A stretch of 64,000 bases of DNA from Lytechinus pictus (Eukaryota). Numbering within the stretch: the stretch's first letter is position 1; each line of letters opens with the position of its first letter. Below are positions 9,324-62,300 of the stretch, in pieces. The DNA is taken from contig NC_087252.1 in NCBI RefSeq assembly GCF_037042905.1, positions 620,001-684,000 of the forward strand, given 5' to 3'. The notes under the pieces are model-generated. The model searched no databases. It saw only the letters and a list, made by a program, of their open reading frames with translations, and was not told the DNA's origin. Both the position numbers and the translations under genes were made by a program.

Positions 9324-12300
9324 CTATGTCTCCTTTATGATGACTTGGCATACCAAGGTATATGTACTACGGCATGGAACATCATGCATATTACCCTCTA
9401 TCATTTCCAAAGCCACGCAATCTCTGGTATTATCAGGTTGGCCAAAGCCCCAGTCTATAAAGGTATAAGAAAGGACAAAGATATAAGGAAATTCGCAGTT
9501 AGCTCATGCCCATGATCAACTTCGCTCGAATCGCTTTCACATTTTTCATTAGGATGAGCACATAGTTAACACTTTCAAATAAAGATGTTTTCCGGATATA
9601 GCACGTTGTAAATTTGTTATAGATTTGGTTCACCATACGTTTGTGGAGAAGCTGCTCACATATGACATCACAAATCAAACATATGACAATTAATCGCTAG
9701 AGGGTATTCATTTGCCTTGCAATCTACTATGGTCAACAAGGAAATTCGTGATCACTCTCGCAAAAAGTGTTCACTAGCTTACAAGTTCGCGAGCTTTCGA
9801 GTGCCGCTGCAACTCTTTATCAAGTGACGAAAATTATATACGCACGAACGCGGGAACAATAGGTGGGCACTGATCCGTTGTGTGATTGGTCGGGCGTTTC
9901 ACCAATCAGTGCGTCGATGTACGGTGCGGCCGGTGATCCGTATATGCAAATAAGCCTGAGGTATATACAAATACGCCGCGAGTCGGCAATATACACTTTT
10001 TGCGAGAGTGATCACGAATTTCCTTGTTGACCATAGTAGATTGCGAGACAAATGAATACCCTCTAGCGATTATTTCAGTCCGCAATAATGAACCTATTTA
10101 GCATATGTACATTCTTATAACTTTTTAAAACTGTAATTGACTTTCCTCAAACCTTCACCAATATTTTGGATTATTTATTTATTTTATTACAATAATTCTT
10201 TTTTGTCAGGGCGAACTTTCCTATTTTAAGCTTAGTTTATTTTAACATATCAATATCATTTATTTAGCTACAAAATTCACTTTTCGGAAAACGACAAAGG
10301 GAATGTTTTCATGGAGCCAGAAAACAATTTGCATGTATATTGGCATGGTCAATCAATGCGTATGAAGCCTGAAGTTGGATTTAGGGTTTAGCCTTAAAAC
10401 AGCCAAGAGGGGTTGAATCCTCATTATTATCACCTTCATCATTAAAAATATGTACAAATATTTCCATTCTGCTTTATAAATGAATTGATTAATTTAATGA
10501 ATTTTATTTTTGGGTTGTCATTTCTTTTAAGCGATCTGCTTTTAATGACATTACTTCTCCTGCAAACTGTAAATGTTAAAATCATTTGGTTGTAGATCAT
10601 ATTTGTTTAGAATAACTTGTTATTTAGTCCATTTTTTCTTTTATGATTCATGCCAAAAACAATAATCAATAAATCATGTTATGTAATGAAAAAATATATC
10701 ATATACGAATGTTATAAATGCAGAAAAAAACGATAAACCAATCAAATCCACAAGTCGAAATTCATTGGACGCACCAATCAATCTGACCTTTTACTTTGAA
10801 ATCTTTTGATACCAAAATGCGACTCCTGGGTACGCGATTGCAAAATTACGCAACATTGTGTAAGTGAATTTCAGACCCAAAATTGCCCCAAAACATGTTT
10901 TGAGTACAAAGTCAATCCAAAGTGAGTTTTCTAATCTTATTCATGAAGATGTAAATATTTTCAATTTCACCAGCTGAAATAAATTGGTTCAAGATTAATC
11001 ATGCTTCAAACAGGTTATGCAATAAATTTGTCGCAAAAAAAAAAAAAAAAAAAAAAGATCGACAAACAATTGTAATTTCGTTCGTAATATTCCTTATTAG
11101 GTGTATTTTACTTTGTCTTGCGAAAAATTTGTCGATTCATTCGTCAAGCTGGGATTAGGTCTTGAATAAATCTTCAAATAAAAGAATTAATTGCTGTAAT
11201 TGCTTGCCTCAATGCTTTAGGGCAAGAGGGAGCGGAGTCTTTTTTTCGAAACACAAGGAACATCATGAATTGACACATAGATTAAAGTCATCCTAATGGC
11301 CCTGGGAAGCAGAGGTGCTGGGGTGAGTCTTCCACATTTTCTTTTCCGCGGGGGTTGCTTGTATGGTACTACACCAACGCAGCACTTCCTGGAAATAAGG
11401 CCGACATTCTTAATTGTAAAGACTTGACCCAAATTTTCCTTATTTGTGCATTTGAGAACATCCCCCCTTTCGGCTCAGTCAATTCCTCATTGTAAATGAA
11501 AATAATACCTTATACCATTTGACTAAGTTGTAGTTAATAACAATCAATTATGAGGGGGAAAATGAGAAAATTTGTCTTGTTGACCCCCAGCCTCGTGGAC
11601 CCTCTAGGTCTCGTGCACCCTGAGCCTCATGGGATAACCCCAGGGTTCTTAGAGGGCAGCATTCCCTCTACGCTCGTTGGATTTTTACTTACTTCGGTAG
11701 TAAGTTTGTGTGTCGTGTCTGTCAGTGTAGCAGAGGTATGAACCGCTTATTCTTTTACAGTTCAACCAGATCCATCCATCGGTAATGAGAGTCTTTAAAA
11801 TGACGTACTCTTCATCACTCTCTACGGAGACTAGGGTAGGGTCCTCCATGATCCCGTTACCCATGGCAACAGCATCCAAACTATTACAGTGGTCTTTAGC
11901 TGCTTGGTAAGACGCGGATGAGGATGTTACCAGGAAACATTTGGTGCCCGCATACTCCCAATCGGCTGGACACACTTGATGAAAGGATAAAACGTGGATC
12001 ACACGATTCATGTAACAGACTATAACAGACCGATTCAGTTTGTTTGCTGTTTTATCAAACAAATTCTATATGAAGGTTCAAGTTCAAATGCAGTATGTAT
12101 AATGACAGTTAACTTATGCACTGGTATAGCAAATTATATGGCTTATCATAACATACTGAAAGTGCTCTTGTTCTACTTTGGGAGCCTCCACCCCACCCCC
12201 ATTGCCATTAGCATATTAAGGAACCAGGCAAATAATACATTGAATCTAATGAGGCTAATCAAAATATGTATTCATGAGGTCATATCTGAGGCCCGATTCC

Positions 12301-13993
12301 CACCAAAGTTGGGGAGTGGGGGTTTTTCATGAAGCTCTACCAAAATATGATATAAAAAACGCTGAAATGCGAAAAAAAGTTTTTTTTGTGACGTCATCAC
12401 TTCGGTACTCTATTACATGATATTCGTTCCATGAATATTCATGAGTCGTAGTCTGACTAAATAAACCCAATCGGGTCATGACCATGGGAAGCAAGGTGCA
12501 AAAGTGTAACTTTTGTAGTGAAATCCTTTATTGTTTGCTTTTCAGATTTCTCGATACCAATGTGACATCGACTTTGTAAAAAAACCTTTTTTTGCTTTTC
12601 AAATTTACATGTTTAACAATTGTAGTTCCACATTGTAGTTCTGAGAGAAATAAAACTTTGTTTCACAGGACAATGGGTAGCAAATTAGAATATATCTTAT
12701 TTCATATAATAAGATACAAAAGAAACAGTGAGTGATATCATCAGTCCCCTCATTTGCATATCGACCGGGATGTGCAAATTATTGTTTTGTGAAATTAAGC
12801 GAAACTTTAAAATATCATAACTTTTTTATTTTACATCCGATTTTGATAAAATTTTCAGTGTAAGGCTTGTTGCATTGTTTTCTTTTTATTCAAATCAACT
12901 TTTTGTTTGGGTGGACTTGTCTTTTAAGGAACAATAGATGAACAGTAGAAGAAGAACTGAAGAAGTAAAGATTGTGAAACTTAATAATCAATTGAAAGGC
13001 ATACGATTGCATGAACACTACACATACTGAAAATAATTATCAAACTGAATGACGGTAAAATGTAACTGAAAATAACAACATACCACTCCTTGATGTATTT
13101 CAAACATGATTAAACTCATGACCAGTAGTTAATTTTCTTAAAGTGGTAAATAACCCGGGTACTAGAGACGACAATATTTACTACTTTAAGAAGATCTCGA
13201 CGATACAGTTTTGAAGTTAATTCGATACAAGGCTTATATACGCTTACTTGGAATCTGACAATTCTTTCCAAGATACGCCTCAAGACAGGAGCAGCTATAG
13301 CCATCCAATTCTTCCATGCACGATCCACCATTCTGACACGGATTGGAGTAACATGCTGTAAAAGGGATATTCAAAAAATGGTGACTCCACTGTACAATTT
13401 AGCTGCCAGGTGGGCGTTTCATAAAGTTGTTTGTAAGTTAAGAGCGGCTTTACGAACGACTGGTGAAACTTTCTTACCCGCTATTAATAACTCCGAATTA
13501 ACATTTAATGTTGAATATCATTCACCACAAGGAATGATCACTAGTCGTTCTTAAACTCACTCTTAACTTACGGAGAGCTTCATAAAACGGCCCCAGATCT
13601 ATTTCAAATACATTCTAGGTTTATTTTGTCATCATAACTGCATACCAGTGGTAATTTTGAAATATTCTTTCTGAATCCATTTGGAAAAAAATAAAGATAT
13701 ACTACTACTACTACTACTACTACTACTGCTGCTGCTGCTACTACTACTGCTACTGCTACCATTGGCGGCGGAGCAGAGGATTATATTTTGGGTTTGGGGG
13801 GGACGCAACAATAGGCGTCCCCCCAAACACAAAAGATAATCCTCTGCTCCGCCGCCAATGACTGCTACTACTACTACTACTATATTATAATTATTATTGT
13901 TGTTATTAAAGGGTTAAAGTAAATAGCTTACTAATTCTAACACTAATACTTCTTCTACTCCTCCTCCTTCTACTATTACTTCTATTGCTTCTT

Positions 13994-14121: not shown

Positions 14122-15858
14122 TTCTACTACTTTTACTGCAAACTGGAATCTTTGCTAAACATTATGTTTGATGAAAATAGTACCTTGAAATGCACAATTC
14201 ATGTTAGTTTTGTTCCGTGCTCTCTGTAGCACTCTGATGTGCTGAGGTGTTGACCGGCACTTTCCATCACCAAGCACTGATAATACATCATGATAAGTTA
14301 AGAAAAAAAAACGAAACATAGAATTAAACATAGTTGCAATAGAAGAAGAGGATGAAGGTAGAAGAAGAAGAAGAAGAAGAAATTGAAGAAAAAAAGCAGA
14401 AGAAGAAAAGAAGAAAAAGAAGAAGAAAAAAAAGAAGAAGAAGAAGAAAAAGAAGAAGGCGAAGAGGGGAGACTAAAAAAGAGCAAGAGCAAAAACAAAC
14501 AAAGAAGAAAAGAAGAGGGAGGAGGAAAAGGAGAAAAATACAATTAATTGAATCATAAGACATTTTGGAAACAGGGCGATGGCACTATTTTGAAATTAAG
14601 TTTAGAATTTCTCGTCATATTCATCTTCAGTTAACTCAGTTTTTAAAATTCGTTGTTTGATGACTCGCACATCAAATAAAAACATCTGATCTATTCAAGA
14701 AGGTAAACACATCAACACAATCATTGAGACCCCATGTATACACCCCCTAAAAAACAACAACAACATAATTTAACTACCAGTAGCAACTAAGATATCAAAA
14801 AGAGCCGAAAGAGTTGATGATAAATACCAGTTGTTGTCACGATTTCAAAATGAGTTCGTACAGAATCCAATGAAATGACCATTAAGTGTGTGTATGTATT
14901 ATGTATTATGTGCCTAAGGACTCTGGAAAAAATGGTATTTGCTTAGAAATTGACAAAATAGGCATGGCATTCCATTAAAATATCAGGGGGGGGGGTCACA
15001 AAGATTAAGTATGACGTATATAGCGTTGCAAGAAATCTTAAATCTTTGTAAAACACCCCTGGTTTTTTTCTAGTCAATAATAATACGCTGTCCCACGTGT
15101 ATAGTGATCCGATAGGGTTAAAGTAAATAGCTTACCGTCGAATGGTTGATTGAGAATAGAGAATACCACGATTAGGAGCTTTGAAGAGTTCTTAAATAAA
15201 TCGAAATAATATAATGATGAATTATTATGATAAAATAATATACAGCACATGCATGATTACAATGAATGATAATAAACTCTATAAATAGTAATTAATACTA
15301 CGCTACTACTACTACTACTACTACAACAACTACTACTACTACTAATACTACTATTACTACTACTTCTACTACTACTACTACTAATACTTCTGCTACTACT
15401 GCTGCTACTGCTGCTACTACTACTACTACTACTACTACTGCTACTACTACTAAACTACTACTACTGCTATCATTACTAATACAACTTTACAATCCTATGA
15501 CTATTATCGGAATTATGAAGGCGCTACAATGATGCTTCTTGAGGCATTTTTATTTCAGGCCACTATCTTACACAATTACTGGCTTATTGAATGGGAGGGG
15601 GGGGGGGGTTGGGGCCATTGACCCCCAAATTTATACCACTAAGAAAAATGAGAAAAAGATGGAAAAGGAAAAAAAGACAAAATGTGACAGTGTCATGTCA
15701 AGATCTGCAATCTAAGGTTCAAGTTTTTTTCTAAAGATAAAATAAAAATATGTCACTCGCTTCGCTCGCTCCCAGATTTTAAAAAATCTTACCCCATAGC
15801 ACCATGTCTGCCAACTCAAATTTGTTTTACTTCATCACGCTTATGCATTACTTACCAT
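9324..15858 (-). CDS. Secreted EGF + C-type lectin protein, copy A (223 aa); coding exons 15858-15856, 15190-15136, 14276-14184, 13355-13248, 11974-11693, 9454-9324
   Basis: All introns GT-AG with consistent phases (0,1,1,1,1). Protein MNSSKLLIVVFSILNQPFDVLG (signal-like), EGF CYSNPCQNGGSCMEELDGYSCSCLEAYLGKNC, CTLD CPADWEYAGTKCF...NWGFGQPDNTRDCVALEMIEGNMHDVPC...LVCQVIIKET*. Confidence 0.88.
9691..10072. mobile_element. MITE-like element with about 80-bp terminal inverted repeats (unit A intron 5)
   Basis: TAATCGCTAGAGGGTATTCATTTG...CAAATGAATACCCTCTAGCGATTA; absent from B and C. Confidence 0.75.
13410..13593. mobile_element. Degenerate palindromic MITE; truncated copies near 38455 and 59775
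   Basis: GGGCGTTTCATAAAG...CTTCATAAAACGGCCC, internal inverted symmetry, CAG flanks. Confidence 0.55.
13760..13860. mobile_element. 101-bp hairpin MITE, hAT-like
   Basis: CATTGGCGGCGGAGCAGAGGATTAT...ATAATCCTCTGCTCCGCCGCCAATG flanked by the 8-bp direct repeat ACTGCTAC. Confidence 0.75.
13990..14130. repeat. (CTA)n microsatellite, intron 3 of copy A
   Basis: Direct reading. Confidence 0.95.
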
Positions 15859-16887
15859 GTTGATGAAGGCCCATGTACTTGCCGTGTTCTGTTTGAAGAA
15901 TCTGAAGTTTTATTACATTATGGTAAGCTTGGAATGTCAGGTAAAGCGTAGCAAACTATCACCTTTTTAATAAAAAAAATGCAATCTAATTAAAGCACAC
16001 CTAACATTATTTTAATCGTACCTCTCGGGGTCACCGTAGACTGTCCTTGCCATACCTCATACATTAATGAAGAATCGCTAAGAGTGTCTAATTGAGAAAG
16101 TGCGCTCTACAGTGAACTCAATATTTGATTAGTTTATCGTTTTTTAATTCACTGTTTCTTTATGCCATTCTACATGGATGGATGGATGGATGGATGCAGA
16201 AAGGAAATGAAAATTCCTTCGTTATAATATAATTTGAGATCAAAATGTTAATCAATCCTTTATGATGCCCAACACAATCAATTGTAAAGAAAAACCATGT
16301 ATCATAAACACAATGCCACTGCATGCATTAAAGTAATTTAATAGTGAAGAGCAGTCGAGGATTCCTCAGAGGTGAGACGAGTTTGCTGCTGCGACAGTTG
16401 CATCGGGCTTTCTTTTAGCTAGCAGGGTTAGGGTTGCAATAGGTTCCATGAGCCTACTTACAAAAGGAAGGCTTAAGATATCCGTTCGACCCAACCCATT
16501 CGATTTTTTTCAATATGATATTGCTGATTGACAGAAGTGTATGAATATAATTGAAAATCTAACACTGATTCTAGAAATGATAACTACTGAACTTCGTTTG
16601 CCCGAAATGGGAAGATATATCAATAACTTTGGAACTATTTTTTGACTGGCGGAAGAATTAGGGCTATTTTACTGTTTCAGTTGATAAATTTGATAGTTAT
16701 CTTCATAAATGCCGATTTATTTTTAAAATGAGCTGGCTACGATACCCTTCTCTGGTCAGATATGGAATGACAGATATATATCCTATTCAATGGTAGTAAA
16801 CATTCGACCCTCTAATTTCACGTTTATTTTTTAGAAATTTTTCAAAAGTGCCATTTTAACACACAAGTCTATGGGGAATGTTTTATA

Positions 16888-17254: not shown

Positions 17255-20200
17255 AAGGGTATAGTGTTAAATGCAGGGTTGAAGTTAGCTGAGCAACTGT
17301 TGCCGGGGCAAGTATAATGGAATCAGTTCGTCCGGAACCCAGAACTATCCAATGTATTTGTAGCAAGAAAGGATCGTTACTTGTATCGACTTAATAGATA
17401 TTGTTATTAACTTCTTTCTAGTTGTGTTAACTCCAACACGTCACCTCCCCCTTTTCTCTTTCTCTCTCTCTTTCTCTAAGTTTCATGATGAAGTCTTCTT
17501 AAAATCAAACACTGAACAAGGTTCGAGATTTGCAACAGCCTGGTTACTAAATGAATCGTGATTAGTGTTTTTATTGAATCAATTTCCAAAATGCGTAAAG
17601 TAAGTCGAAATAGAATAACAAATTTCTTCTTTAGTTAACATAGATTACAGAAACATGACAGAGTATTTATATTGTTTAACATAATAAATGCAAGATAAAT
17701 ATATTAATAAGAATTAGTAGCCAGAAAAGACCAAATAGTAATCTCTGCTTTATCATTTTAGCGAAACAATGGTAAGATACAAGTTTTTCATACATGCACA
17801 TCCTTCATTTTTAGTTTGAAATATAAAGATTGAATATATAAATTATGATAAGGTTGAAATAAAACTTGTATTCATTAAGAGGGTGCGTAACTGACAATTA
17901 TATGATTTGAACTTATGAAGAAAGATCAGACAAACAAAACACTGAAAATTTTATCAACATCGGACAATGAATAACATATAATAACACAATAACATTACCA
18001 GTCATTTTGAATATTTGCATTATTACAGTGAAACAGTTCTATGCAATATATTTTTTGCATATTCAATGAGCAAATTGACGGTGTCATATCCCCGCCTGTT
18101 CTTTTATATTTTATTACATAAAATAATGTGTATTTAATTGTATTCCTCTAAGAATAAAAAACCTGAATAGACAACTAATTTAATACATTAGTTATTTAGT
18201 GCTGCCACTTATACTTTATCATAAGGGAGACATATGATGCACATATGTATGCAAATGATATCAAACAATTATGATTTTATGTAATACCATAAGAAAAAGG
18301 AAAATGGGACATGAAATTGCTAAACATTAAATCAAATAATTTTGTCTTTGGCATCAGATTTTCATGAAACTTTCACCATTTTGCTCAATAAATCTAACTG
18401 TATTTAGTACAGATATCTTTATTATTAGTCCCCAGCACCCATCTTAAAATATAAATGAATTTTAGTAATTCATAAGTATTTGTAAATCTAAAGTTCTTAA
18501 ACAATAAAAATTACTGAAGGATATTCTTTTAAATTTCATCAACTATGGGTAATAAATAACGATTCAATTCCAATTCACTTCTTTATTTCATTTCCATTCA
18601 AAGATAGTTTACAGTAATATTCATAAATCAAACCAACATTGTACTATGAGATAAAATTCAGCCCCATGTAGCCATTTCTGAAAGATGACGCGAAAGATTC
18701 CATATTCATATATTCATTGTATTTCAGTTATTGACCGCGTGCCTCAAAACCCATCCCAATTGACCTGTGATATTTTTCATCGTAGAAAAGTGTTCCCCCA
18801 ATTCGTCTTTTAAGGTCATCTTACGTCTGGTCCAAGTTTCGATTTTGGAACATTTGAAACAAATTGCAATTTGTGCATTTTCTGAAAATGTGAATAAAAA
18901 GTACATTTTATTTAAGTTTAATTAGCTGTAATAACCCCAATATAACAATTTTGAAAGATTGAAAGCCTTTACATTTAGAAAAGGCCAAATTCGTTTCAAA
19001 ACGTAGCCGATCGTACGATTGCTATGACGTCATTACGATAACATATTAAATGTGCTTTTATTTCAATAAGGATTATTGCATAGTTACATATTTGAACATA
19101 GGTATTTGTATAATGATTTAGAACATTACACAGTAAAATATCCAATCTTTCAATACGCATAATTATCAGATAAAATTATGGGCCCGTATTCTGATAGCAG
19201 GTTTAATTTAACCCTAGTCTAAAGTTAACCCTGGTTTAACTAAACCTCCTCTAAACCTCACCTCTGGTCTAAGTGTAGTTTAATTATTTTGGTATTCTGA
19301 TAGCCGGGTTTAACTAAACCTGGGTTAAACCCGGGTTTAAAATTCTTTTTGAAAATAATAACCCTCTTTTAACCAAGACTAACACCTTTTTGGTAAATTA
19401 CTGCTACAGGGATGATTGCAACAAAGTTGAAAAAATGGCACTAAAGTTGTTTTTTCTTAAAAATTTGGATATCATGGAAACTAATAACAACTATTGTAGT
19501 GAAAGAAAAGCATTCATCACCCATATGTGGTAAGACATTTTCATTTCAATTATCTTTATTTTTGTTAATTACTAAAACATTTCAACCCCAAACCGAGTGA
19601 CCTGCACAGTTTTTTGAGTATCAGTCCCATTTATTGCTTTTCATGTTTGTCAAAATCTAAATTGAATAGATTCCCCTCAACCACTCTTGACTAGAGTCTA
19701 GACTCTAGTCCTAGATCTAAAACAATAAGCTAAGAGGTCGACGTCTTTATTTTAACTTTAAGTAGGGCCTAAGGGATTTTTTTTTTTACTTTTGAGAGTA
19801 GTCTTGGGTCTAAATAGGCTTATAGTTAGATCTGGCCTAGGCCCGTTTGGAGGAGAATTGAACATAGTTTTGACTATTTGACTTTTTATACTTTCCTGAA
19901 GCAAAACATTGTCTAGTGAGTTAGTGGAGCATCAAAGACTGAAGATACATATTTTATTATTGGTCTAGGCCTATAACAGCATTCAGGACTTAGGCTGGCT
20001 TAGCTTAGGGACAGGGATAGATATAGGTTATTATTCTAACCTTAGGCTTAGGCTAGATCTAGTGGAATGGATCTGATTTGTCTTAGACAAAGAGCTTTGA
20101 ACAGTCTCTGTCTTGGTTGTTCCGCTGAATTATGACACTCTACGTTGGCCTCTCTCACCAAGGCAATGTTATATGACAGTAAAATGTCAGAATTTTTAAA

Positions 20201-20396
20201 ATAAATCCCAGAAACAACGGTTATTCCTGTCTACAGACAGTACAGTGTTAGATCTGATTATCGCTGCATTGCTTGCCAAGTAACTGGGCCTGGCTAAATT
20301 TAGAATTAGTCCTAGACATCTCTCTACTCCTGTTTTAGGTCCATATCTGTTTCTTTGAAGAGTTTTTTATTCAAACATTTTTGGGGACTCGTTTAG

Positions 20397-20635
20397 TGTT
20401 ATATATGAAGGTTTGAAAGAAAGAATAACATAAATGTGTAATAAGGTCTGCATGTACAGACTAGCAACATGTATGAATCTGTATTATGTATACACATGTA
20501 GAAGTGGACATTGGACAACACACACAGGGAGACTGTAAATGAAGGAGCAATAAAGAGTCAACAGACATTTTGAGTTAAGCAAAACTTGAGACTTTAATGT
20601 GTCATTATTCGGCTGGATGAACCCAAAACATAACA
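20397..20635 (+). repeat. 5' LTR
   Basis: Direct repeat of 26243-26481 with one mismatch seen; contains AATAAA. Confidence 0.95.
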
Positions 20636-22333
20636 AAATTTGGCGACGAGATGCGGGATATGCTAGGGATCAACTGTATTTAATAATTTTGCCTGAGCCC
20701 CAGGAAAATAGTGGATGTGGATGGATTACAATTTTGGATTGTGAAACAATTTTGTGTGATACAGTCAGTGCCATATCTATCTACAGTCCCAGGTATGAAA
20801 ATCTGTGTATGGACGCGCTATGCAGTTATAAGTCACATTGATTTATTGTAGTGGTGTATTATGGACGCTATGCAGCTGTCAGCCACAGTCAGAATAGGTG
20901 GCTAAACCATAATTTACACTTGTCAGCCATTTTGAATAAGACCAGGACTAGCAAATAGTCTAGACTGAAGTGAAGCCCAGTTCCTGTGTAGAATTTAGCC
21001 TATTGAGATTGGAACCAGCATTCAGCAAAGCCAAAGAACTCTAGTCTCTACACGACAGCCCAAGCCCTAGCATCTGTTTATGAACTTTTGATCCAGCCTG
21101 ATCAGTACAGGACCAGTCGCAGCCTAGCCCAGCCAATTGTTGGTCCAGTCTCAGCCTAAACCAGCCCAGCCTTGGTCCAGTCTCAGCCTAATCCAGACCA
21201 GCCTTGCTCCAGGCTCAGCCCAGCCCAGTGCAGATGTGACCTAGCCCAGCCGCCAGGTCGAAGACTCGAAGTTAAGTCTTGCACTTACTAAGAGTGACCC
21301 TGCCCGGTCCAGCCCAGCCGCCAGGACCTGCCAAGCCTCGCACAGCCCATGACCCTGCCCGGTCCAGCCCAGGTCCAGGCAAGCCACTCTGAAGGATGAA
21401 TCAAGCTCAGCCTCAGAACAGTGTTTACACAATGAATGGATAAAACATTGAAACTGAAACTTTGCAAGCAAGACTCTAGACTTGAATGATAACTGAATGG
21501 ACTCAGTGTAAAGACTTTGAACTCAGTTTATGCTTGATATTTGATGCATAAAATTGATGAAATGTATTTGAGTGACCATTGAAGATAATTCTATTGTGCT
21601 AAAACGAGCATTAATTGCAGGTGAGCCAACACAAGCATTTAGATACAGTTCCAGTGCCTAGCTTAAGGTAACAAATGGTAAGCTTTTGGTACAAAAATTA
21701 ATGTTGCCGATTATCAAAGAGGTCTAAGTCCATTGCCATGTCATGATAGATGTATAGTTGGTCTATTGAGCTAGTCTAACTTACATAGCCTGACTATTAA
21801 GGTCCAGGACCTACATCTAAGTTTGAACCTTGAGACCTGAAGAGTTAGTCTAGATCTATATACACTACTAGTATTTGTTCAGTTGCTAGGACCAGGAACG
21901 AATTGAAGTTGGTCTAACTTGCTAGGACCAAGAACTAAAAGAATTTAGTCCAATATTATCAGGACCAGGACCTGTTTGATAAATTGAGTGATCAATAGAG
22001 TCTAGGTACAATAAATGTGCATTGATCACACTAGTGTGAAAAGCATAGGACCAAATAGTGTACTGTCACATTGGTCTAGCCCTATAAATACAGCAGCCCT
22101 GTAATTTTGTATGAAACTAGAGTGCATGTTGCACGTACAGGAATTCATAATCTAGCTGCACACGGTTATTAAGTTATTGAGTGTGAATAATAGCCACATT
22201 GCGAGAGTGTAGTCTTAAGACCAGGCCTAGTTGATATAGACTAAGCCTATGCAGGTCTAGTAGAAGTATTTTACAGTGTATACCTACAGCCTATGTTGTT
22301 ATTCTGTTAAGTGTAAGTACTAGTCAAGTACCC

Positions 22334-23587: not shown

Positions 23588-23602
23588 GCAAGCCCCAGAA
23601 GT

Positions 23603-49378: not shown

Positions 49379-52300
49379 CTATGTCTCCCTTATGATGACT
49401 TGGCATACCAATGTATATGTATTACTGCATCGATTATCATGCATCGTACCGTCTGTCATTATTAAAACCACGCAATCTCTGGTATTGTCAGGTTGGCCAA
49501 AGCCCCAGTCTATAAAGGTATAATAAAAGACAAAGATATTTATCAGCAAATTATGTCATGCTGATGATCAACTTCGCTCGAATCGCTTTCACATTTTCCA
49601 TTAGGATGAGCACATAGTTAACTTTCCAGATAAAAGTACGTTGTAAACTTGTTCAAAAGATTTGGTTCACTTTTGATTTTTTTGTTACCATACAATATGT
49701 GGAGAAGCTGCTCACATATGATGTCACTAATTTAAAAATAAAAATTATTTTAACTTTTTAAAACTGTAATTGACTTTCCTCAAACCTTTGATTATTTATT
49801 TGTATTACAATATTTTTTTTGTCAGGGTGAACTTTTCTATTTAAAGCTTAGTTTATCTTAACATATCATTATCGTTTAATTAGCTCTAAAATTAACTTTT
49901 CGGAACTTGACAAAGGAGATATTTCCTTTGAACCAGAAAATAATTAACAATATAAAAAAAAACATGGTCAATGAATGCGTATGAAGCCTGAAGTTGGATT
50001 TAGGGTTTAACTCTAAAACGACCAAGAGGCGGTTGAATCCTCATTATTATCATCATCATCCTCGTTAAAAGTATGAACCTATATTTCTATTCTGCTTTAC
50101 AAAGGGTTAATTAATTTAATGAATTTTATTCCTGAGTTGTCATTTTTTTCAACCAATCTGCTTCTAATGGCAATATTCTCCTGCAAACAGTAAATGTCAA
50201 AATTATTTGGTTGTAGATCATATTTGTTTAGAATTACTTTATTCAGTCCTTTTTTCTTCATGATTCAAGCAAAAAAAACCCGTAATATATCATGTTATGT
50301 AATGAAAGATATATTTATACGAATATTATGAATGCAGAAGAAAGCAATAAACCAAATCAAATCAAATCCCCAAACTCGAAATTCATTGGACGCGCCACTC
50401 AGTCTGACCCCTTATACCAAAATGCGACTCCAGGGTACGCGGTTGCGAAATAACGCAACATTATGTGAGTAACTGTCAGATCCAAAATTGCCCCAAACGT
50501 ATTTTTTAATAAAAAGTCAATTGGGTAGTTCTTGCATCCAGATATGCACACTATGCATATCTACAATTTTGCATTATAGGATTTTGGGCCCTACATTGCA
50601 TCCATTGTTGAACTACATATAGGCAGGTCTAAATCCATAGGGCACTAGACATATAGGAGTAACATTAAAATTGGTCATTACATAACACATATGTTCATGC
50701 GTTTCTTTGTGATAAAGTGAGTGTACAGATGTTAAAGAAAAGCCAGGAAGGTAATTTAAAAAGAAACCTTCATGTGCCATAAAGGTCACACGGGCCTAAC
50801 TACAACTGACAGGCCAAAGATATCCATTCGAGCCAACCCATAGCTCAATTTTTAAATTTGATATTGCTGATTGACAAAAATAACAATCTAACACTGATTC
50901 TACGGAGGGTACCCACTGAACTTCCTTTTTTCCAAATTGGAAAGATATATCACCACTTTGGATCTGTTTTTTTTTACTAGCAGAATAATTAGGGCCATTT
51001 ACTCTCTCAAGTGATGAATTTGTGTGTGTGTATTTGAGTATCTATTTGATCCTGTCAGGTGTAGTCTTCATAAATGCCGATTTATTTTTAAAATGAGCCG
51101 GTCGAGGTACCCTTTTCAGGTCAGATATGGAAAGTCAGACAGATATTCTGTCCACTGGTAGTAAACATTCAACCCTCAATTTCCTCCTTATTTGTTATGA
51201 TTTTTGTTAAAGTGCCACTTTAACACACGAGTCTATGGGAAATAAATTAGGCCTGTGATACCCCCGGGTTCTTAGAAACGAACATAGAGGGCAGCATCAC
51301 GTTGCTTCCTTCTACGCTCGTTGGATTTTACTTACTTCGGTAGTAAGTTTGTGTGTCTTGTTTGTCGGTGTAGCAGTGGTATGATCCGCTTATTCTTATA
51401 CAGTTCAACCAGACCCATCCATTGGTAACGTGAGTCTTTAAGATGACGTACTCTTCATCACTCTCAACGGAGACTAGGGAAGGGTCCTCCGTCATCCCGT
51501 TACCCATGGCAACAGCATCCAAACTATTACAGTGGTTTTTAGCTGCTTGGTAAGACGCGGATGAGGATGTTACCAGGAAACATTTGGTGCCCGCATACTC
51601 CCAATCGGCTGGACACACTTGATGAAAGGATAAAAAACATGGATCACACAATTCATGTAACAGACTATATCTATTTATTTATTTATTTATCTATTCCACT
51701 TTTGAAACAAATAACATAATAAACATAACAAATGATATCAAGTTCCCAGAAAATAATGGAGTAGAAAAAGAATAAAAATAAAAATAGTAAGATAAAATGA
51801 AAATGAAAAAAAGACGGAGGGGGGGGGGTTCAAGGGATAAATAATAGAGAGTATAAGAAAGAAAGAATAGAAAAACATAATTAGAATTATGATTTTTTTT
51901 TGCAGTCATCAGTACGATCCAGCCTTGTACCTCTCTAAAAGGTACAACTTAAAGGGATTGTCTAGGCTGGAGATATTTATATCTTAAAACAATTAATAGA
52001 GTAAAATTTACAGAGCAAAATGGTGAAAATTTGATCAAAATCGGATAACAAATAAAGTTATTGAATTTTAAAGATTTGCATTATTTCGGTGAAACAGTTC
52101 TAGGCATGTCTTCATAAATATATTCATTGGGTGGGCTGATGATGTCATATCTCCACTTGTTCTTTTGTATTTTATTATATGAAATTGGGTTTATTCAAAA
52201 AAAATTCTACCAAGAACTAAAACAATTGGATTGAAAACTGATTAAGTGCTTTAGTTATTTATTGCCGCAACTTATTTCATCATAATGGAGACACATCATT

Positions 52301-55300
52301 AACACATGTATGAAAAAATGAAGCATTGATGATTTCATGTAATAACATAAGAAAAGGGAAAGTGGGGATGTGACATCATCAGCCCACTTAATGAATATTC
52401 ATGAGGATGTGCATATAACTGTTTTCACAAAATATTGATAAACTTTAAAATTCAATATTTTTGTTATTTGTTTTCCCGATTTTGATGAAATTTTCAGCAG
52501 TTTGCTCTGTGAATTTTACTCTATCTACTAAGATATAAATATTTTCAGAACGGTCCATCCCTTTAAGCTTAGGTTTGAAAGAATTGAGAGCGGTTCTATC
52601 AACCAGTTCGTTATTTAGGATGTTCCATAATTTGGATCCTGTAGTAGTAAAAGTTCGGGTTCGGGTTTGTGGGAGGTAGTAATGGTTAGCTTGTCTAGTT
52701 GAATGGGAGTGTAAAATGAAATTGCATTGAAATAATGGCGGAAAAGCATATGGTAAATAATCATTCTTAAGTTTGAACATAAATATACCAAGGTTGTACA
52801 AATAGATATTTTCAAGATTTTGCAATTATAAAAAAAGTCATTTGTATGAGCACGAAATCCAGCGTTATTGATTATTCTTATAACACGCTTTTGGACAATG
52901 CTAATTTTGTCAAATAAAAAGAGGGTTTTGGAGCTAATACCCCAAGTTAGAATGCAGTAATTGAAGTAGAGCAAAATTAGAGCAGGATAAAGTTCATGTA
53001 TACGCAACACATGAAAGAGTACAAGTGTTTCAGTTTGTTTATCACACCAGTGTTACGAGATAATATTTTACATAAGGAATCAATCTGTACCCGCCACGTT
53101 AGCTTACTGTCGATATATATACCTACAAATTTGGTAGAATCAACTTCGAAGATGTTTTTATTGGGATCAGGACAACTACCCCCCGGACAATCACCCCCCG
53201 GACAACTACCCCGGAAATTACCCCCCGAGGACAATTATTCCCCGGACAATTACCCCCTGAGGACAATTACCCCCCGAGGACAATTACTCCCCGGACAACT
53301 ACCCCCCGGACAATTACCCCCTGAGGACAATTACCCCCGAGGACAATTACCCACCGGACAATTACCCACCCGGACAACTACCCCCCGGACAATTACCCCC
53401 CGGACAACTACCCCCGGACAATTACCCCCGAGGACAATTACCCCCCGGACAATTATCCCCTGGACAATTACCCACGAGGACAATTACCCCCGAGGACAAT
53501 TACCCCCGCGAAAAATTACCCCCCCCCTGAGGACAATAACCCCCTAGACAAAGGGAGTGCACAGAGTCATACGTCGGCCGTACGTTTGACGTAAGAAGTA
53601 CTCAAGGCATTCTCGAGTATCTTGGAATCAAACGAACGCCGTAAGAAAGCTGTAAAAGTGAGCTCCATCCATAGGCGGATCCAGGCGGGGCCCGAGGGGC
53701 CCGGCCCCCCCCCCCTATTGGCGGAGCAAAAAAATTAAAAAAAAAAGAAAGGGGAAAGAAAGAAAAAAAAGAAAAAGAAGGGGAAAGAAAGATGGAAAAA
53801 GAAGAGGTAAAATAAAAGGAGGGAGGCGAGTGAAAAAAAAAGGTCATGGGAGGACTTGGAAAATGATTAAAAAATATATTTCATGTCACTATATTAAATA
53901 ATTCGCTCGCGCTTCGCGCTCGCATAGCCTGTTCGATGAGATACATATCTTGCTAAATAGGCTAAATAGGCTGATATGTAGCTTAAAATATCAAGTTTTG
54001 AAGTCGATATACAAAGCATATTTCAGCTCGGACATTATTCATTAGTTTGTTTGATTTACAAACTGATTTTTTTAAGTGCTCTGTAAAATTTCCGTTTTGT
54101 GGTCTAATTATAAATATTTTCAGAACGGTCCATCCCTTTAAGCTTAGGTTTGAAAGAATTGAGAGCGGTTCTATCAACCAGTTCGTTATTTAGGATGTTC
54201 CATAATTTGGATCCTGTAGTAGTAAAAGTTCGGGTTCGGGTTTGTGGGAGGTAGTAATGGTTAGCTTGTCTAGTTGAATGGGAGTGTAAAATGAAATTGC
54301 ATTGAAATAATGGCGGAAAAGCATATGGTTAATAATCATTCTTAAGTTTGAACATAAATATACCAAGGTTGTACAAATAGATATTTTCAAGATTTTGCAA
54401 TTATAAAAAAAGTCATTTGTATGAGCACGAAATCCAGCGTTATTGATTATTCTTATAACACGCTTTTGGACAATGCTAATTTTGTCAAATAAAAAGAGGG
54501 TTTTGGAGCTAATACCCCAAGTTAGAATGCAGTAATTGAAGTAGAGCAAGATTAGAGCAGGATAAAGTTCATGTATACGCAACACATGAAAGAGTACAAG
54601 TGTTTCAGTTTGTTTATCACACCAGTGTTACGAGATAATATTTTACATAAGGAATCAATCTGTACCCGCCACGTTAGCTTACTGTCGATATATATACCTA
54701 CAAATTTGGTAGAATCAACTTCGAAGATGTTTTTATTGGGATCAGGACAACTACCCCCCGGACAATCACCCCCCGGACAACTACCCCGGAAATTACCCCC
54801 CGAGGACAATTATTCCCCGGACAATTACCCCCTGAGGACAATTACCCCCCGAGGACAATTACTCCCCGGACAACTACCCCCCGGACAATTAACCCCTGAG
54901 GACAATTACCCCCCGAGGACAATTACCCACCGGACAATTACCCACCCGGACAACTACTCCCCGGACAATTACCCCCCGGACAACTACCCCCGGACAATTA
55001 CCCCCGAGGACAATTACCCCCCGGACAATTATCCCCTGGACAATTACCCACGAGGACAATTACCCCCGAGGACAATTACCCCCGCGAAAAATTACCCCCC
55101 CCCCTGAGGACAATAACCCCCTAGACAAAGGGAGTGCACATACGTCGGCCGTACGTTTGACGTAAGAAGTACTCAAGGCATTCTCGAGTATCTTGGAATC
55201 AAACGAACGCCGTAAGAAAGCTGTAAAAGTGAGCTCCATCCATAGGCGGATCCAGGCGGGGCCCGAGGGGCCCGGCCCCCCCCCCCCTATTGGCGGAGCA

Positions 55301-58300
55301 AAAAAATAAAAAAAAAAGAAAGGGGAAAGAAAGAAAAAAAAGAAAAAGAAGGGGAAAGAAAGATGGAAAAAGAAGAGGTAAAATAAAAGGAGGGAGACGA
55401 GTGAAAAAAAAAGGTCATGGGAGGACTTGGAAAATGATAAAAAAATATATTTCATGTCACTATATTAAATAATTCGCTCGCGCTTCGCGCTCGCATAGCC
55501 TGTTCGATGAGATACATATCTTGCTAAATAGGCTAAATAGGCTGATATGTAGCTTAAAATATCAAGTTTTGAAGTCGATATACAAAGCATATTTCAGCTC
55601 GGACATTATTCATTAGTTTGTTTGATTTACAAACTGATTTTTTTAAGTGCTCTGTAAAATTTCCGTTTTGTGGTCTAATTATTAATATTTTCAGCTCATG
55701 CTGCTCGGTCGCATTATTTGATTTGCATAGGCCTACTTCTTTATAAATTCTTACAAACCGTCCTTAAAATGCAGATTAAACGAATTGTATACTATCATGA
55801 TTGCCAATTTGTATAGAAAATACACTGTGTTTGATTGTGTCATATTGTTTAAATTTAGTAATTTTGGTACTTAATTTCCTTCTTTAAAGGGGAATCCAGC
55901 CTTGGCCATAAAATTTTATGTTGGGAAGGAGAAAAATGAATTATACAGAATGGTGAAAGTCTGAAAGAAATCGGACAAGCAATAAGAAAGTTATAGCTGC
56001 TTTAAAATTGAGACCACTAATACTATGTAAATTTCAAATTGGCAACTGGGTAAGTAAACTATGACAAGGGGCAAGGACAACTTTCCCACAGGCCATGTAC
56101 TTTATTATCAGGGATTTGTGTTTTTTCCATTCCCCTGGGGCAGTAATCTAAATATAACCCAGGTAGTATATTGTTTTATGTCCTCATGAAAGAAAAATAT
56201 AATTTGAAATAAAACTTTTAGGAAAAATGACATTTTAGCCATAATATGTATTGGAGTACATGGAAGAGTAGTCATTGCTTTACATCACTATGACATCCCA
56301 TATGCGGCCAATTTGAAGTCTCCATGGGTATAGTGATTAACAATATTTACAACTTCTAAAATTCATAACTTTCTTGTTGTTTGTCAAATATTGTTCAAAC
56401 TTTCACCTATCAACTTGTCTGATTTTTCTTTTCCTTATAAAAACAAATTTTTATTTGGGTTGGATTCCCCTTTAATGTTTAATTGCTTTCACCCAAGAAT
56501 AATACACACAAAATGTAATTTTACCATTTAGGTCCTAAATGGTAAAATCACAAGTTGTTCTTGTGTGTATTATCTTTGCAATTTTTTTTTAGCTTACTGT
56601 ACTAAGTTATAAAGCCACATCTAAATCTGGAATGTGCACCAATTGTTTCATAAATCTTAGCTTCTTGTTAGTTGAATTGTTTTAAAATAACAGGTTTACA
56701 GGTCCTACTTGACAGTGTTAGTGTTAATTGCGTTATCGACTTTCAATATTTCTAACTATGAAGGTGTCTTTTTTACGTTTTATCTATTTGCCTGATTTCT
56801 TTCCTGAAATTAAACCCAAAATAAATATTTAGAAAAATCAGATCAGTTGGAATAAGAGATATTCAGCATTTGTGATTATTATGACTAATCGTGTTCAGTT
56901 GTTCTATGAAAACTTAGTATGAGGGCCAGTTTACACTTTTTCTAATGTACATATGCATAGCCAAACGGGAGGTTTCGGGTGCAAGCCCCCCCCCCCCCAT
57001 TTTTGATGATGCAGAAGGCGACGCTAAACAAAAAAAAAAGGAAAAAGGCGAAAGTGAGAGAGCAGTAGAAAGAGCAATATAAAAGAGAAAGAAAAAGTTA
57101 TTAACGTAAGATAAAATAGAAAATATTATGAAAACCTGTGCCACCGACCAAAACTTACAATGGGTCCCGCTTAATTCTAACATTGATGCTGGAGAGAAGG
57201 GGGGATTTTCTGGGGGTAATTGTCAGGGTGGTAGTTGTCCGGGGGTAATTGTCCGGGGTAATTGTCCGGGGGGTAGTTGCCCGGGGGTAATTGTCCAGGG
57301 GGTAGTTGCCCGGGGGTAATTGTCCGGGGGTAGTTGTCCGGGGGTAGTCGTCCGGGGTTAATTGTCCGGGGGGTAATTGTCCGGGGGGTAATTGTCCTCA
57401 GGGGGTAGTTGTCCGGGGTAATTGTCCAGGGGGTTATTGTCCTCAGGGGGTAATTGTCCGGGGGGTTATTGTCCTCAGGGGGTAATTGTCCGGGGGGTAG
57501 TTGTCCGGGGGGTAATTGTCCTCGGGGGGTGAATGTCCGGTGGTAGTTGTCCCGGGGGTAATTGTCCGTGGGGAAGTTGTCCTGATCCCCAGTATTAATG
57601 ATATCTAAAAGGGTATTGGGGTTTTGATGGGAGCAAAAAATATTGGAGTCATCAGCAAAAATAATAAAAGACAATACTGAAGAAGTATTCTGTAAATCTT
57701 TCATTATAACATAAAGAGGAGCGGGCCTAATAATAAACCTTGTGGGACTCCACATCTAATGGGTTGAGGGGTTGATTCAACACCATTAATATAAACATAT
57801 TCTTTTTTATCATAAAGGTAGTCCCTGAACCACTCCCAGGCCTTTCCTCGAATTCCGTAGTGAGACAAATTGTATAGCAAATTATTATGGTTAATGGTGT
57901 CGAAGGCCTTGGAGAGGACCAGAAAAACACCTGCAGCATGTAACTTGCTGTCAATAGCTCTGGCAATTTTATTGGTACTTAATAAGAGGGCATGTGTTGT
58001 TGAATGTTGTCTGCGGAAACCAAATTGAGACCCAGAAAGCACATTGTTGCTATTTGAAAAAAATCAATGAGGCGAGAGTAAATAATTTTATCTAGTATCT
58101 TGGAAAAGCTGGTTAAAAGAGATATTAGGCGATAATTTCCTATGTCATGTTTATTGCCTTTCGTAAAGATAGATATGACCCTGGAAATCTTCATTTTTTT
58201 TTGGTTAAAGATAAATTAAATATATGTGTTAACGGACGGACACTTTTTAATAAGGCATTTGTTGCACCATCATATGAGGCTTTTCTTTTGCTTCATGTTA

Positions 58301-59930
58301 CTTTTATTTGATTGAAAAATATTTATTTATGAAAAACACAAGACCAGTGAAAAAAAAACAAGGTCCGAAAAAGGTTGAAAAGTTACATCAAAATTAAAAA
58401 ATCATATCATTAGTGGGGGAAAATACGCTTGCCGCCATGAATTACAGAGCTCTGTAGTTATATTTATCTGATGTATGCATAGTATTCGAATCGCTCATGC
58501 ACTGTAAATCATATCGAATACAATTTTCAAAACAGAAGCATCATTAAAGACCAAGTCTACCCCAGAAATATATAATCAATAAAGAAAAAAACAGACAACC
58601 ATAATGCTTAAAATTTCATCAAAATCGGATGTAAAATAAGAAAGTTAGGACATTTCAAAGTTTCGCTTATTTTTCACAAAATAGTTATATGCACAATTTA
58701 GTCGCATGTAAATGATAGAGTCGATGATGTCCCTCACTCACTATTTTTTTTTTTGTTTTTTATTGTTTGCTTTATTCATTATTTCAATTTTGTCAGATTT
58801 TACAGAAAGGACAAACTTAACTGAACCATAAAATGTTTAACAATGATACGTCCACATGTTTAGAGAGAAATAAAACTTTGTTTCACAGGACAATGAGTAG
58901 AAAATTAGAATATTTCATATTTCACATAATAAAATACAAAGGAAACAGCGAGTGAGTGAAGGCATCAATCCCCTCATTTGCATACCGACAAGGATGTGCA
59001 TATAACTTTTTTTTTTTTTTACACCCGTTTTTATAAAATTTTCAGTGTTTCGCTTGTTGGATTTTTCTCTTTTCATTCAAATCAACTTCTAATTGGGGTT
59101 GGACTTTTCCTTTATTGCAATAGATTTAAAATAAGAACAATTATATTCATTATAACGATATGCTATATTTGGAGATTAAAACTAAGGTATAATATTCAGA
59201 TGAGAGTTATGATCATGAATATGAATTTTCTGATGTCATCTCTAATTTTAGATACTATTCAGGCAGCGATTTTAATAGGACGACTATTCAACTTTAAGGA
59301 ACAATAGATGAACAGTAAAAGAAGAACGGAAGAAGTGAAGATGATGAAACTTAATAATCAATTGAAAGGCATACAATTACATGAACACTAAACATACTGA
59401 AAATAATTATCGAACTGAATGACGGTAAAATGTAACTGAAAATAACAACATACCACTCCTTGATGTATTTCAAACAAGATTAAACTCATGACCAGTATAG
59501 TTAATTTTCTTAAATTTCTTCCGGGTACTAGAGAGGACAATATCTACTACTTTAAGAAGATCGACGACACAGTTTTGAGGTTAATTCGATACAAGGCTTA
59601 TATACGCTTACTTGAAATCTGACAATTCTTTCCAAGATATGCCTCAAGACAGGAGCAGCTATAGCCATCCAATTCTTCCGTGCACGATCCACCATTTTGA
59701 CACGGATTTGAGTAACATTCTGTAAAAGGGAGAGGGAAATTACATGGTGACTCCGTTGTACTCTTTAGCTGCCGGGTAGGTGTTTCATAAAGTTGTTTGT
59801 AAGTCAAGAGCGGCTTTTAAGAATGACTGGTGAAACTTTCTTACCCGCTAAATAAACCCGAATTAACATTTAATGTTGAATATCATTTACTACAAGGAAG
59901 AATCACTAGTCATTCTTAAATTCACTCTTG

Positions 59931-60421: not shown

Positions 60422-60459
<38 letters not shown>

Positions 60460-62300
60460 TTACTACTACTACTATATTATTACTACTACTACTACTACTA
60501 CTACTACTGCTATTACTACTACTACTATATTATTACTACTACTACTACTACTACTACCACTACTACTACTAATACTACGTTAAACATAATGAATGATTAA
60601 ATAGTACCTGGAAATGCACAATACATGTTAGTTTTGTCCCGTGCTTCCTGTGGCACTCTGACGTCATATTCTGGATGATCACGTGTTAAATACTTGGCGA
60701 CAAACTGAACAAATTCACCTGTATGCTCGGAGATTTGATAGGGACATGCATTTAGAGGCATTGAGCTGCATGTTCCATCACCAAGCACTGCTGTTACATC
60801 ATAAAAGTTAAGAAAAAAGAAACATAGGAGGATGAAGGTGGAAAATAAAGAAGAAGAAGAAGAAGAAGAAGAAAGAAAGAAAGAGATGCAGTAGACGATG
60901 AAGAAGAAGGAGAAGAAGAACAGATGAATGGAGCAAGAGCAAAAAAAAAAAAGAAAGAGAAGAAGAGGGAGAAGAAAAAGGAGAGAAAATACAATTAATT
61001 GAATTATAAGACATCATGGAATCAGGGCAGTGGCACTATTCTAAAATCAAGTTTAAAATTTCTGGTCATATTCATGTTCAGTTAAATCACTTTTTAAAAT
61101 TCATTGTTTGATGACTCGCATATAAAATAATAACATCTGATTTAGACACGAAGGTAAACACATCAACACAATCGTGTAGACCCCATGTATACACCCCCCC
61201 AAAAAAAAAAAACCAATACCAGTAGCAACTAAGATATCAAAGAGATCCGAAAGAGTTGATGATAAATACCAGTTGTTGTCACGATTTCAAAATGAGTTCG
61301 TACAAAATCCAATGAAATGACCATTAAGTGTGTGTATGTATAAATAAGAATTATGTGCTTCTGGACTCTGGAAAAATATATATTTACTTAGAAATTGACA
61401 AAAATAGGCATGGCATTCCATTAAAATATCAGGGGGTCACAAAGATTTAAGTATGACGTATATAGCGTGTAAAACAACTCTGGTTTTTTTTTTCTAGTCA
61501 ATAATAATACACTGTCCCACGTGTATAGTGATCCGAAAGAGTTAAAGTAAATAGCTTACCGTCGAATGGTTGATTGAGAATAGAGAATACCACGATTAGG
61601 AGCTTTGAAGAGTTCTTCAACAAATCGAAAGAATATAATGATGAATTATCATGATATAATAATATACAGCACATGCATGATTACAATGAATGATAATAAA
61701 CTCTAATAAATAGTAATAAATACTACACTACTGCTACTACTAATACTACTACTATTACTACTACTACGACTACTACTACTTCTGATACCACTTCTAATAC
61801 TACTACTTCTTCTTCTACTACTACTACTACTGCTACTACTACTACTACTACTAATACTAATTTTACTACATTTACCACTATTTACTACTACTACTACTAC
61901 TACTACTGCTATCATTACTAATACAACATTACAATCCTATGACTATTATCGGAATTATGAAGGCGCTACAATGATGCTTCTTGGAGCATTTTTATCTCTG
62001 GCCACTATCTTATACAATCACTGGCATACTGAATGGGAGGGGGGGGGGCTTTGGGGCCATTGACCCCCCAAATTTACAAGAAAAATGAAAAAAAGATGGA
62101 AAAGTAAAAAAAAAAAGGCGAAATGTTACAGTATCATGTCAACATCTGCAATCTAAGGTTCAAGTTTTTTCTAAAGACAAAAGTAAAATAACTCACTCGC
62201 TTCGCTCGCTCCCAGATTTTTAGAAATGGCCAATGGCGTCATATCTGCCCCCTCATTTTTTTTTTTGTTTACTTCATTACGCTTCTGCATTACTTACCAT
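49379..62300 (-). CDS. Secreted EGF + C-type lectin protein, copy C (252-253 aa); coding exons 62300-62298, 61614-61560, 60787(or 60790)-60608, 59719-59612, 51617-51336, 49509-49379
   Basis: Exon lengths identical to copy B (3/55/180/108/282/131), canonical junctions, no stops, and a few substitutions versus B (for example R>I before MTDG, and D>N, M>T, L>H in exon 5). Confidence 0.88.
52538..55694. repeat. About 1.57-kb tandem duplication in intron 4 of C
   Basis: 52538-54112 is repeated at 54113-55683; AATATTTTCAG lies at all three boundaries; single copy in B. Confidence 0.9.
53163..57589. mobile_element. Same foldback-like element in C, with the left arm duplicated (second left TIR at 54738)
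   Basis: Same TIR and arrays as 33365-36048. Confidence 0.8.
59931..60578. repeat. (CTA/TTA)n microsatellite, about 650 bp
   Basis: Direct reading. Confidence 0.97.

Follow-up and report, generated by a model that had tools for sequence, protein, structure and literature searches.

The 64,000-nucleotide stretch of the Lytechinus pictus genome considered here (RefSeq assembly GCF_037042905.1, contig NC_087252.1, positions 620,001 to 684,000 of the forward strand; hereafter the window, numbered from 1) contains three collinear units, delimited by self-comparison as A (8449-19179), B (28772-48632) and C (48633-64000, cut by the window end). Each unit carries one minus-strand gene whose predicted product combines an N-terminal module, an epidermal growth factor (EGF) domain and a C-type lectin domain (CTLD). 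The genes consist of six exons separated by five GT-AG introns (15 of 15 canonical), and their frames, of 223 amino acids in A and 252 in both B and C, are free of internal stops. In every copy exon 1 supplies the ATG only, exon 2 the core of a predicted signal peptide, exon 3 the N-terminal module, exon 4 the EGF domain, and exons 5 and 6 the CTLD; the gene models place the 5' border of exon 1 by guess only. The limits 9324 and 62300, given to the cluster in the initial annotation, are the stop codon of A and the ATG of C. The exons are as follows.

15856..15927, minus strand: copy A exon 1, 5' untranslated region ending in ATG (5' border uncertain; the L. variegatus proteins P0008 and P0010 start likewise)
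15136..15190, minus strand: copy A exon 2, predicted signal peptide core
14184..14276, minus strand: copy A exon 3, module with an in-frame 87-nt core deletion, two cysteines remaining
13248..13355, minus strand: copy A exon 4, EGF domain
11693..11974, minus strand: copy A exon 5, CTLD (acceptor 11974, donor 11693)
9324..9454, minus strand: copy A exon 6, coding part, with QPD, a beta3-beta4 region with clustered derived changes, and stop
43562..43633, minus strand: copy B exon 1, ending in ATG
42798..42852, minus strand: copy B exon 2, predicted signal peptide core
39139..39318, minus strand: copy B exon 3, complete three-cysteine module, phase 1-1, CAGCAG acceptor
38291..38398, minus strand: copy B exon 4, EGF domain
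31535..31816, minus strand: copy B exon 5, CTLD part 1
29525..29655, minus strand: copy B exon 6, coding part, CTLD part 2 and stop
62298..62369, minus strand: copy C exon 1, ending in ATG
61560..61614, minus strand: copy C exon 2, predicted signal peptide core
60608..60787, minus strand: copy C exon 3, complete three-cysteine module
59612..59719, minus strand: copy C exon 4, EGF domain
51336..51617, minus strand: copy C exon 5, CTLD part 1
49379..49509, minus strand: copy C exon 6, coding part, CTLD part 2 and stop

The EGF cysteine pattern was found three times in the six frames of the window and never in any of 20 shuffles, and exon 4 of copy B passed the Pfam EGF cut-off by itself. No single exon searched alone in Pfam reached the Lectin_C cut-off; the full proteins P0001 and P0006, near-identical to the window genes, passed the cut-offs for both Lectin_C and EGF. 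Exon 2 is identical among the three copies (0 of 55 nucleotides differ) and encodes a short hydrophobic core behind a lysine; P0008 and P0010 share the same start methionine and exon 2, and the N-termini of paralogues are similar. No transmembrane segment was detected, the best 19-residue hydropathy past residue 25 being at most 0.75, and the stop codon lies a few residues past the last CTLD cysteine in all three copies. Exon 3 is a phase 1-1 exon whose acceptor in copy B is a tandem CAGCAG. P0008 and P0010, which are isoforms, differ by the single residue that such an acceptor predicts, providing independent support for the gene model, although RefSeq proteins are predictions as well. The initial annotation's picture of six in-frame exons per copy, encoding a secreted-type protein with a predicted signal peptide, an EGF domain and a CTLD, is thus borne out. 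Its description of three intact genes holds for their tandem arrangement and open frames and fails for copy A, from which the deletion has removed the core of the module.

Transcription was assessed for copy A only (8800-19300, at 85% likeness), to which 4 of 24 listed runs were aligned; contig runs were taken to be RNA by guess, and alignment depth was dominated by repeats. The alignment of one contig (organism-A) starts exactly at 11974, the acceptor of exon 5, and the 33 letters preceding this point are unplaced; that of a second (organism-B) starts exactly at 11693, the donor of exon 5, and leaves 71 letters unplaced. The two ends fit splicing at the exon 5 borders and leave the partner exons unrevealed. 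A transcript-like contig over exon 5 differs from A, B and C at 13, 12 and 15 positions, respectively, and is therefore assignable to no one copy. In a raw-read run, 13-15 reads cover two positions of exon 4. An organism-B piece at 13334-13477 continues from exon 4 into intron 3, indicating either unspliced RNA or DNA. The proposed check of mapping RNA to the predicted junctions gave weak support: contigs end at both borders of exon 5, and the best 15 of 339 joints include no predicted one.

Exon 3 had been taken for a linker. In B and C it encodes instead a conserved module of about 58 amino acids with three cysteines, lying between the predicted signal peptide and the EGF domain. A profile made from nine exon-3-like stretches was run against 3718 candidates and, at E<=0.001, picked out 24 clusters: 11 from L. 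pictus, 5 from L. variegatus, 5 from Diadema and 3 unnamed. All 21 named clusters are from sea urchins, which, with candidates picked by exact words, is a lower bound on the range. The Strongylocentrotus purpuratus model P0168 also carries the module. Lysine, histidine, tyrosine, cysteine and proline positions are invariant in 40 of 40 module copies, isoforms and near-duplicates included, and the other two cysteines never vary among the copies in which they are covered (32 of 32 and 38 of 38). Copies B and C score 126 bits against the profile; A scores 11 bits because its core is deleted.

None of the nine module sequences matched a Pfam family at E < 0.1, and matches to Arc (E 0.15) and DUF903 were dismissed as chance. 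The best match of the profile among PDB sequences had an E of 0.054, and nothing usable in the ESM Atlas matched the module. AlphaFold2 predicted a hairpin-helix-strand arrangement in two models, with a mean pLDDT of 70-79 per ten-residue block. For a domain this small and a model of such intermediate quality, the VIA fold search gave a best Z of 2.3 (rmsd 4.6, 46 aligned), and Foldseek returned no match at E<=0.001, a result that says neither new fold nor different fold. The predicted complex of two module copies, run without an alignment, scored 0.01, which is evidence neither way.

In the window family the module precedes the EGF domain and an atypical CTLD. Diadema models have it immediately ahead of canonical CTLDs, with as many as four copies in one model, and elsewhere it stands before EGF, discoidin and MAM domains; a diverged form precedes six EGFs and two SRCR domains. 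The domains behind it are all extracellular binding domains, and phase 1-1 exons are of the symmetric type suited to shuffling. Judged from sequence, the module is a conserved, shuffled and unnamed domain of sea-urchin proteins. Since the EGF domain has six cysteines and the CTLD eight, the module's three would leave one unpaired, which suggests that the spare cysteine may link chains.

A search with exon 5 of B gave three protein matches among 65 candidates, all from Lytechinus. P0001 (XP_054761011.1, L. pictus, brevican-like) agrees with A at 196 of 204 residues and shares its deletion, and P0006 (XP_054761012.1, versican-like) agrees with B at 221 of 224. The genes had been held to be unassignable to any named gene, a claim that these near-identical Lytechinus RefSeq models, themselves predictions, overturn. 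The automatic names of the relatives are brevican-, versican-, neurocan-, aggrecan-, crumbs- and fibropellin-like. In a tree of 42 CTLDs (44 were picked, and P0192 and P0182 were dropped as missing the start pattern), which omits multi-CTLD proteins such as P0019, P0132 and P0171, copies A, B and C fall within one eight-member Lytechinus clade (100/99) nested in a larger urchin family. Relatives lie on several chromosome-scale Lytechinus contigs and occur also in Strongylocentrotus and Diadema. The postulated lineage-specific family is accordingly lineage-restricted, with no studied member found, and extends well beyond the cluster.

Copies B and C show in full the combination that marks the echinoid module-EGF-CTLD family, namely the three-cysteine module, the EGF domain and a CTLD with W-x-N-C and an extra cysteine pair; A shows it apart from the deleted module core. 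All three are members of a large, dispersed and unstudied sea-urchin family built from predicted signal peptide, module, EGF and atypical CTLD. A search of the accessible literature found no description of the family or the module and no paper citing six family accessions. An all-against HMMER search was queried with P0001, which lacks the module core, and its results were swamped by EGF repeats; in the ESM Atlas the whole protein was matched only by entries under 0.9. Two observations concern individual relatives. The S. purpuratus model P0019 (1118 amino acids) contains seven tandem EGF/CTLD stretches of the W-x-N-C type and no module match, so that the atypical CTLD exists apart from the module. 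Residues 1-45 of P0002, P0007 and P0009 (L. variegatus X1-X3) match the antisense of the EGF exon at 86% (window 13278-13409, plus strand), and this N-terminal extension is probably a model artefact or an inverted upstream copy of the exon.

The same junction sequence occurs at all three unit borders, D/A, A/B and B/C, where D denotes a fourth unit whose gene would lie to the left of the window. Positions 1-1073 carry this junction sequence and are 90% like the upstream flank of A, confirming the earlier suspicion that the array continues past the window. We interpret the locus as an array of at least four head-to-tail units, in which D, lying outside the window, is followed by A, B and C. The D/A border holds a LINE and the A/B border an inverted-repeat element with a nested Gypsy; the B/C border is empty. 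Unit flank, insertions and duplications are listed below.

1..1073, no strand assigned: upstream flank of the fourth unit D, 90% to 18045-19155 (upstream of A), with the shared junction sequence
1074..8448, minus strand: LINE-type insertion at the D/A junction, with open reading frames for a 301-aa PHD-finger protein, a 498-aa coiled-coil-like protein and a 519-aa reverse transcriptase
19180..28771, no strand assigned: terminal-inverted-repeat element at the A/B junction, holding the nested Gypsy and absent at B/C
20397-26481, plus strand: nested Gypsy-type long terminal repeat (LTR) retrotransposon, LTRs of 239 bp that are 99.6% identical, 5-bp target duplication
about 27305-28528 (27305-28371 in the element): tandem array of ~157-bp units inside the A/B insertion, ~7 copies, ~70% identity
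39762..42441, no strand assigned: B-specific fold-back insertion in intron 2, TAA flanks
45833..48015, no strand assigned: insertion found only in B, upstream of its gene, with inverted ends of 14 bp and a target duplication of 8 bp
52534..55694, no strand assigned: 1.6-kb tandem duplication found only in intron 4 of C, its 1568 aligned columns showing 6 differences

The 498-aa stretch of the LINE-type insertion has no Pfam match. The Gypsy coding region is divided into three open stretches by an in-frame stop near 23585 and a frame change near 25280, and the element appears to be young but broken. The fold-back insertion at 39762-42441 measures 2.7 kb, is 87.5% identical to its own reverse complement and contains internal 21-bp tandem arrays. 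It had been proposed that the frames persist despite copy-specific insertions; frames and splice sites are indeed kept and true copy-specific insertions exist, but the largest intron expansion, that of intron 4, is common to B and C. Within this intron, arrays of 15-bp units in opposite orientations flank a segment of about 2 kb in both copies (33372-33745 and 35818-36048; 53163-53551, 54738-55128 and 57212-57589). The segment sits within a reverse-transcriptase fragment and resembles an element with tandem-repeat ends.

Non-coding divergence between B and C is 1.9-3.4% over five long blocks, and their proteins differ at 6 of 252 residues. Figures of this kind could arise if the assembly had set two alleles of one gene in tandem, the true array being D-A-B. 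A divergence of ~3% is at the allelic level of urchins, heterozygosity being 2.9% in L. variegatus and 4-5% in S. purpuratus according to the accessible text of PMC9557091. The 6 differences in 252 residues may be set beside the 8 in 204 that separate A from its RefSeq counterpart P0001; the 90% cluster of four members includes only one B/C-type L. pictus model, P0006, which mixes B and C states; and the upstream flanks of A and B are alike enough (3-7%) to permit a switch between them. Two alleles would not readily explain, however, that the B/C junction equals the A/B and D/A junctions minus their insertions, as a true unequal crossover would give, or that no clear switch point from C-like to A-like sequence appears in the flank of B. 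The upstream flank of C is equally close to A and B (3.3-4.0%), pointing to real exchange between units, and the 0 synonymous differences between B and C in 158 sites are few for alleles 3% apart (P=0.008; P=0.09 at 1.5%). We keep B and C as two units and regard the allelic account as a serious possibility of the less favoured kind.

Divergence between A and B in non-coding sequence is patchy. It reaches 14-16% in introns 1 and 5 and in the 3' flank, and drops to 3-7% next to exons 2 and 4 and in the distant part of the upstream flank; any two of the upstream flanks of D, A, B and C differ by 3-7%. Such a pattern is compatible with repeated exchange between units. The flanks show 33 non-triplet indels in 4493 columns, a rate at which the coding region should hold 4.9 frameshifts; 0 were seen (P=0.007). 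Selection thus keeps the frames open, in agreement with the annotation of the genes as selectively maintained. The accompanying term 'diversifying' did not stand as a general claim. For A and B, dN/dS is 0.62 and pN/pS 0.63 (Fisher p=0.15); B and C show 0 synonymous and 6 non-synonymous changes (p=0.35). General positive selection, tested by these comparisons, was dropped because they did not reach significance.

A and B differ at 32 amino acids. With two L. variegatus proteins as the outgroup, the derived state can be placed in A for 18 of these and in B for 5, leaving 9 unclear (18 of 23 polarisable, p=0.011); exon 3, where the alignment beside the deletion is less sure, holds 8 of the 18. 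The 8 polarisable changes of exon 6 all occurred on the A side, with 0 on that of B (p=0.008). One 39-nt window in the beta3-beta4 region takes up 11 of the 16 A-B nucleotide differences of this exon (permutation p=0.012); the exon 6 tests were picked after the alignment was seen. At 9369-9412, some derived ligand-loop residues of A equal those of the distant paralogues P0169 and P0170, a likeness that may reflect micro-conversion or convergence.

Changed specificity and relaxed selection are both possible for copy A. If A were a decaying duplicate under relaxed selection, with no new specificity, one could account for the loss of 29 residues, family-invariant positions among them, for the replacement of further near-invariant residues around the deletion, for the pN/pS values of exons 3 and 6 (0.77 and 0.89, respectively), and for an exon 6 divergence (16 of 131 nucleotides) near that of the non-coding flanks (15%). 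Decay fits less well with a deletion that is in frame, with the retention of all 14 EGF and CTLD cysteines and of QPD, with the clustering of exon 6 differences, itself found in a window picked afterwards, and with P0001, a second A-type sequence that shares the deletion and 6 of the 8 exon 6 changes while its frame remains open. Decay is entertained here as a minority view, and a fast-evolving, derived copy A is preferred.

The CTLD fold is supported by a model of the orthologue P0010, which superimposes on ASGPR1 (VIA Z 15.8, rmsd 2.3, 119 aligned); the top Foldseek matches of the lectin model include the echinoderm lectin CEL-I and MGL. The CTLD of each copy has eight cysteines, an extra pair among them, and W-L-N-C at the position of WIGL, which most CTLDs carry. 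QPD, the alternative to EPN in calcium-dependent sugar-binding domains, is present in all three copies, and MHD replaces WND in all three. In the accessible text of PMC9965136, QPD is linked with Gal/GalNAc binding, WND cooperates with it, and both vary widely among invertebrates. The EGF domain contains the O-glucose and O-fucose consensus patterns.

We propose, with a probability of about 0.6, that the locus is an array of at least four units encoding small secreted module-EGF-CTLD recognition proteins, that it turns over by exchange, and that copy A is derived. That the proteins act as soluble recognition molecules has, in our estimate, roughly even odds. In the proposed mechanism the long loop of the CTLD with its QPD would bind ligand, probably galactose-type glycans, with a calcium dependence that is weakened or altered; the EGF domain would form a rigid spacer, probably O-glycosylated; and the module with its leftover cysteine would link chains or dock them to a partner. 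Turnover would proceed by unequal crossing-over and patchy gene conversion, with B/C representing the ancestral state and A a fast-evolving derivative in which the module core has been lost and the ligand-binding face would have changed.

Several observations weigh against this proposal. The predicted signal peptide has a short core with a best hydropathy of only 1.33. RNA support is thin, the exon bins of the raw-read run lying at a depth < 4, with the predicted joints missing from the best 15 of 339. The polarity of the changes in A depends on an outgroup of only two proteins, the exon 6 tests were chosen with the alignment in view, and the A-B dN/dS is not significantly different from 1. 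With WND changed to MHD and WIGL to WLNC, sugar binding is not assured, and several relatives are without QPD and EPN altogether. Finally, a single locus may underlie B and C.

CTLDs are known from skeletal matrix proteins of urchins, and the family could be structural, consisting of secreted extracellular, adhesive or skeletal matrix components whose CTLD binds no sugar and serves protein assembly. The non-canonical WND and WIGL motifs agree with such a role, as do the EGF repeats of Notch/fibropellin type, of which a single relative may contain many, and a small protein with signal peptide and C-type lectin domain among the Paracentrotus adhesive candidates in the accessible text of PMC10057474, which has a different accession. 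High copy number, fast turnover, variation concentrated in the ligand loop and the position of the module before SRCR domains would all fit recognition better. A structural role seems less likely; we would divide the roles at about even odds for an immune one and something under a third for a structural one, the remainder going to others. Bolder, and in our view a long shot, is the idea that the module is an undescribed urchin domain, possibly of new fold, acting as a shared assembly or docking tag that would join secreted recognition proteins into mixed multimers through its spare cysteine, before CTLD, SRCR or discoidin/MAM domains alike, with A a tag-less form whose ligand loop would have been remodelled by positive selection.

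Tandem C-type lectin arrays are common in invertebrates, and the cluster itself is ordinary. What is new here is that the N-terminal stretch is a conserved, shuffled module and that A has lost it, the family being already present as mislabelled predictions: dozens of urchin models named brevican-, versican-, neurocan-, crumbs- or fibropellin-like form one family with a shared unnamed N-terminal domain. The module deserves a profile entry and a structure, and A versus B/C offers a natural pair with and without it, in a laboratory-model genus, for the study of its function. The locus is also a clear case in which copy number needs read depth to be trusted.

Among known systems, the G3 region of the lecticans (aggrecan, brevican, neurocan, versican) likewise places EGF and then CTLD in a secreted protein. 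The window proteins differ from lecticans in having no Ig or Link domain (58 amino acids separate signal peptide and EGF), no Sushi domain after the CTLD, no long glycosaminoglycan region, about one-tenth of the length and atypical CTLD motifs. Lecticans are large vertebrate proteins of >2000 amino acids in the accessible text of PMC514892, and echinoderms are without lectican genes in that of a review (PMC10381214). Orthology to brevican, versican or neurocan, suggested by the automatic names and by an EGF domain directly before the CTLD, is almost certainly wrong and is refuted by domain content (no Ig, Link or Sushi in Pfam, 223-252 amino acids, stop right behind the CTLD) unless transcripts connect these exons with Link and Sushi exons elsewhere; the initial annotation had also judged against lecticans. 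Selectins carry the CTLD first, followed by EGF, Sushi repeats and a membrane anchor; the window proteins show the reversed order and no membrane segment. Closer in layout is SEEC, or CTLD group XVI (SCP-EGF-EGF-CTLD in the accessible text of PMC514892), with an N-terminal domain, one or more EGFs and a C-terminal QPD CTLD. Its N-terminal domain is SCP, whereas the window module has 58 amino acids and 0 of 9 Pfam matches, so that the likeness is one of layout only. The soluble echinoderm lectins CEL-I and CEL-IV and the Gal/GalNAc receptors ASGPR1 and MGL have the CTLD fold and QPD in common with the window CTLDs, at ~20-25% identity; the latter bear the extra cysteine pair for WIGL, MHD for WND, and the added module and EGF. 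The Diadema perlucin-like and macrophage mannose receptor-like models P0171, P0132, P0179 and P0180 contain the same module, up to four per model; unlike the window genes, they have canonical CTLDs (WTGL) and often no EGF. Nearest of all are XP_054761011.1, XP_054761012.1, XP_054760611.1, XP_041483542-47 and XP_041470501.1, of which the L. pictus models, unlike the window genes, are without the signal-peptide exon; these are the same genes or close paralogues and form one clade with A, B and C.

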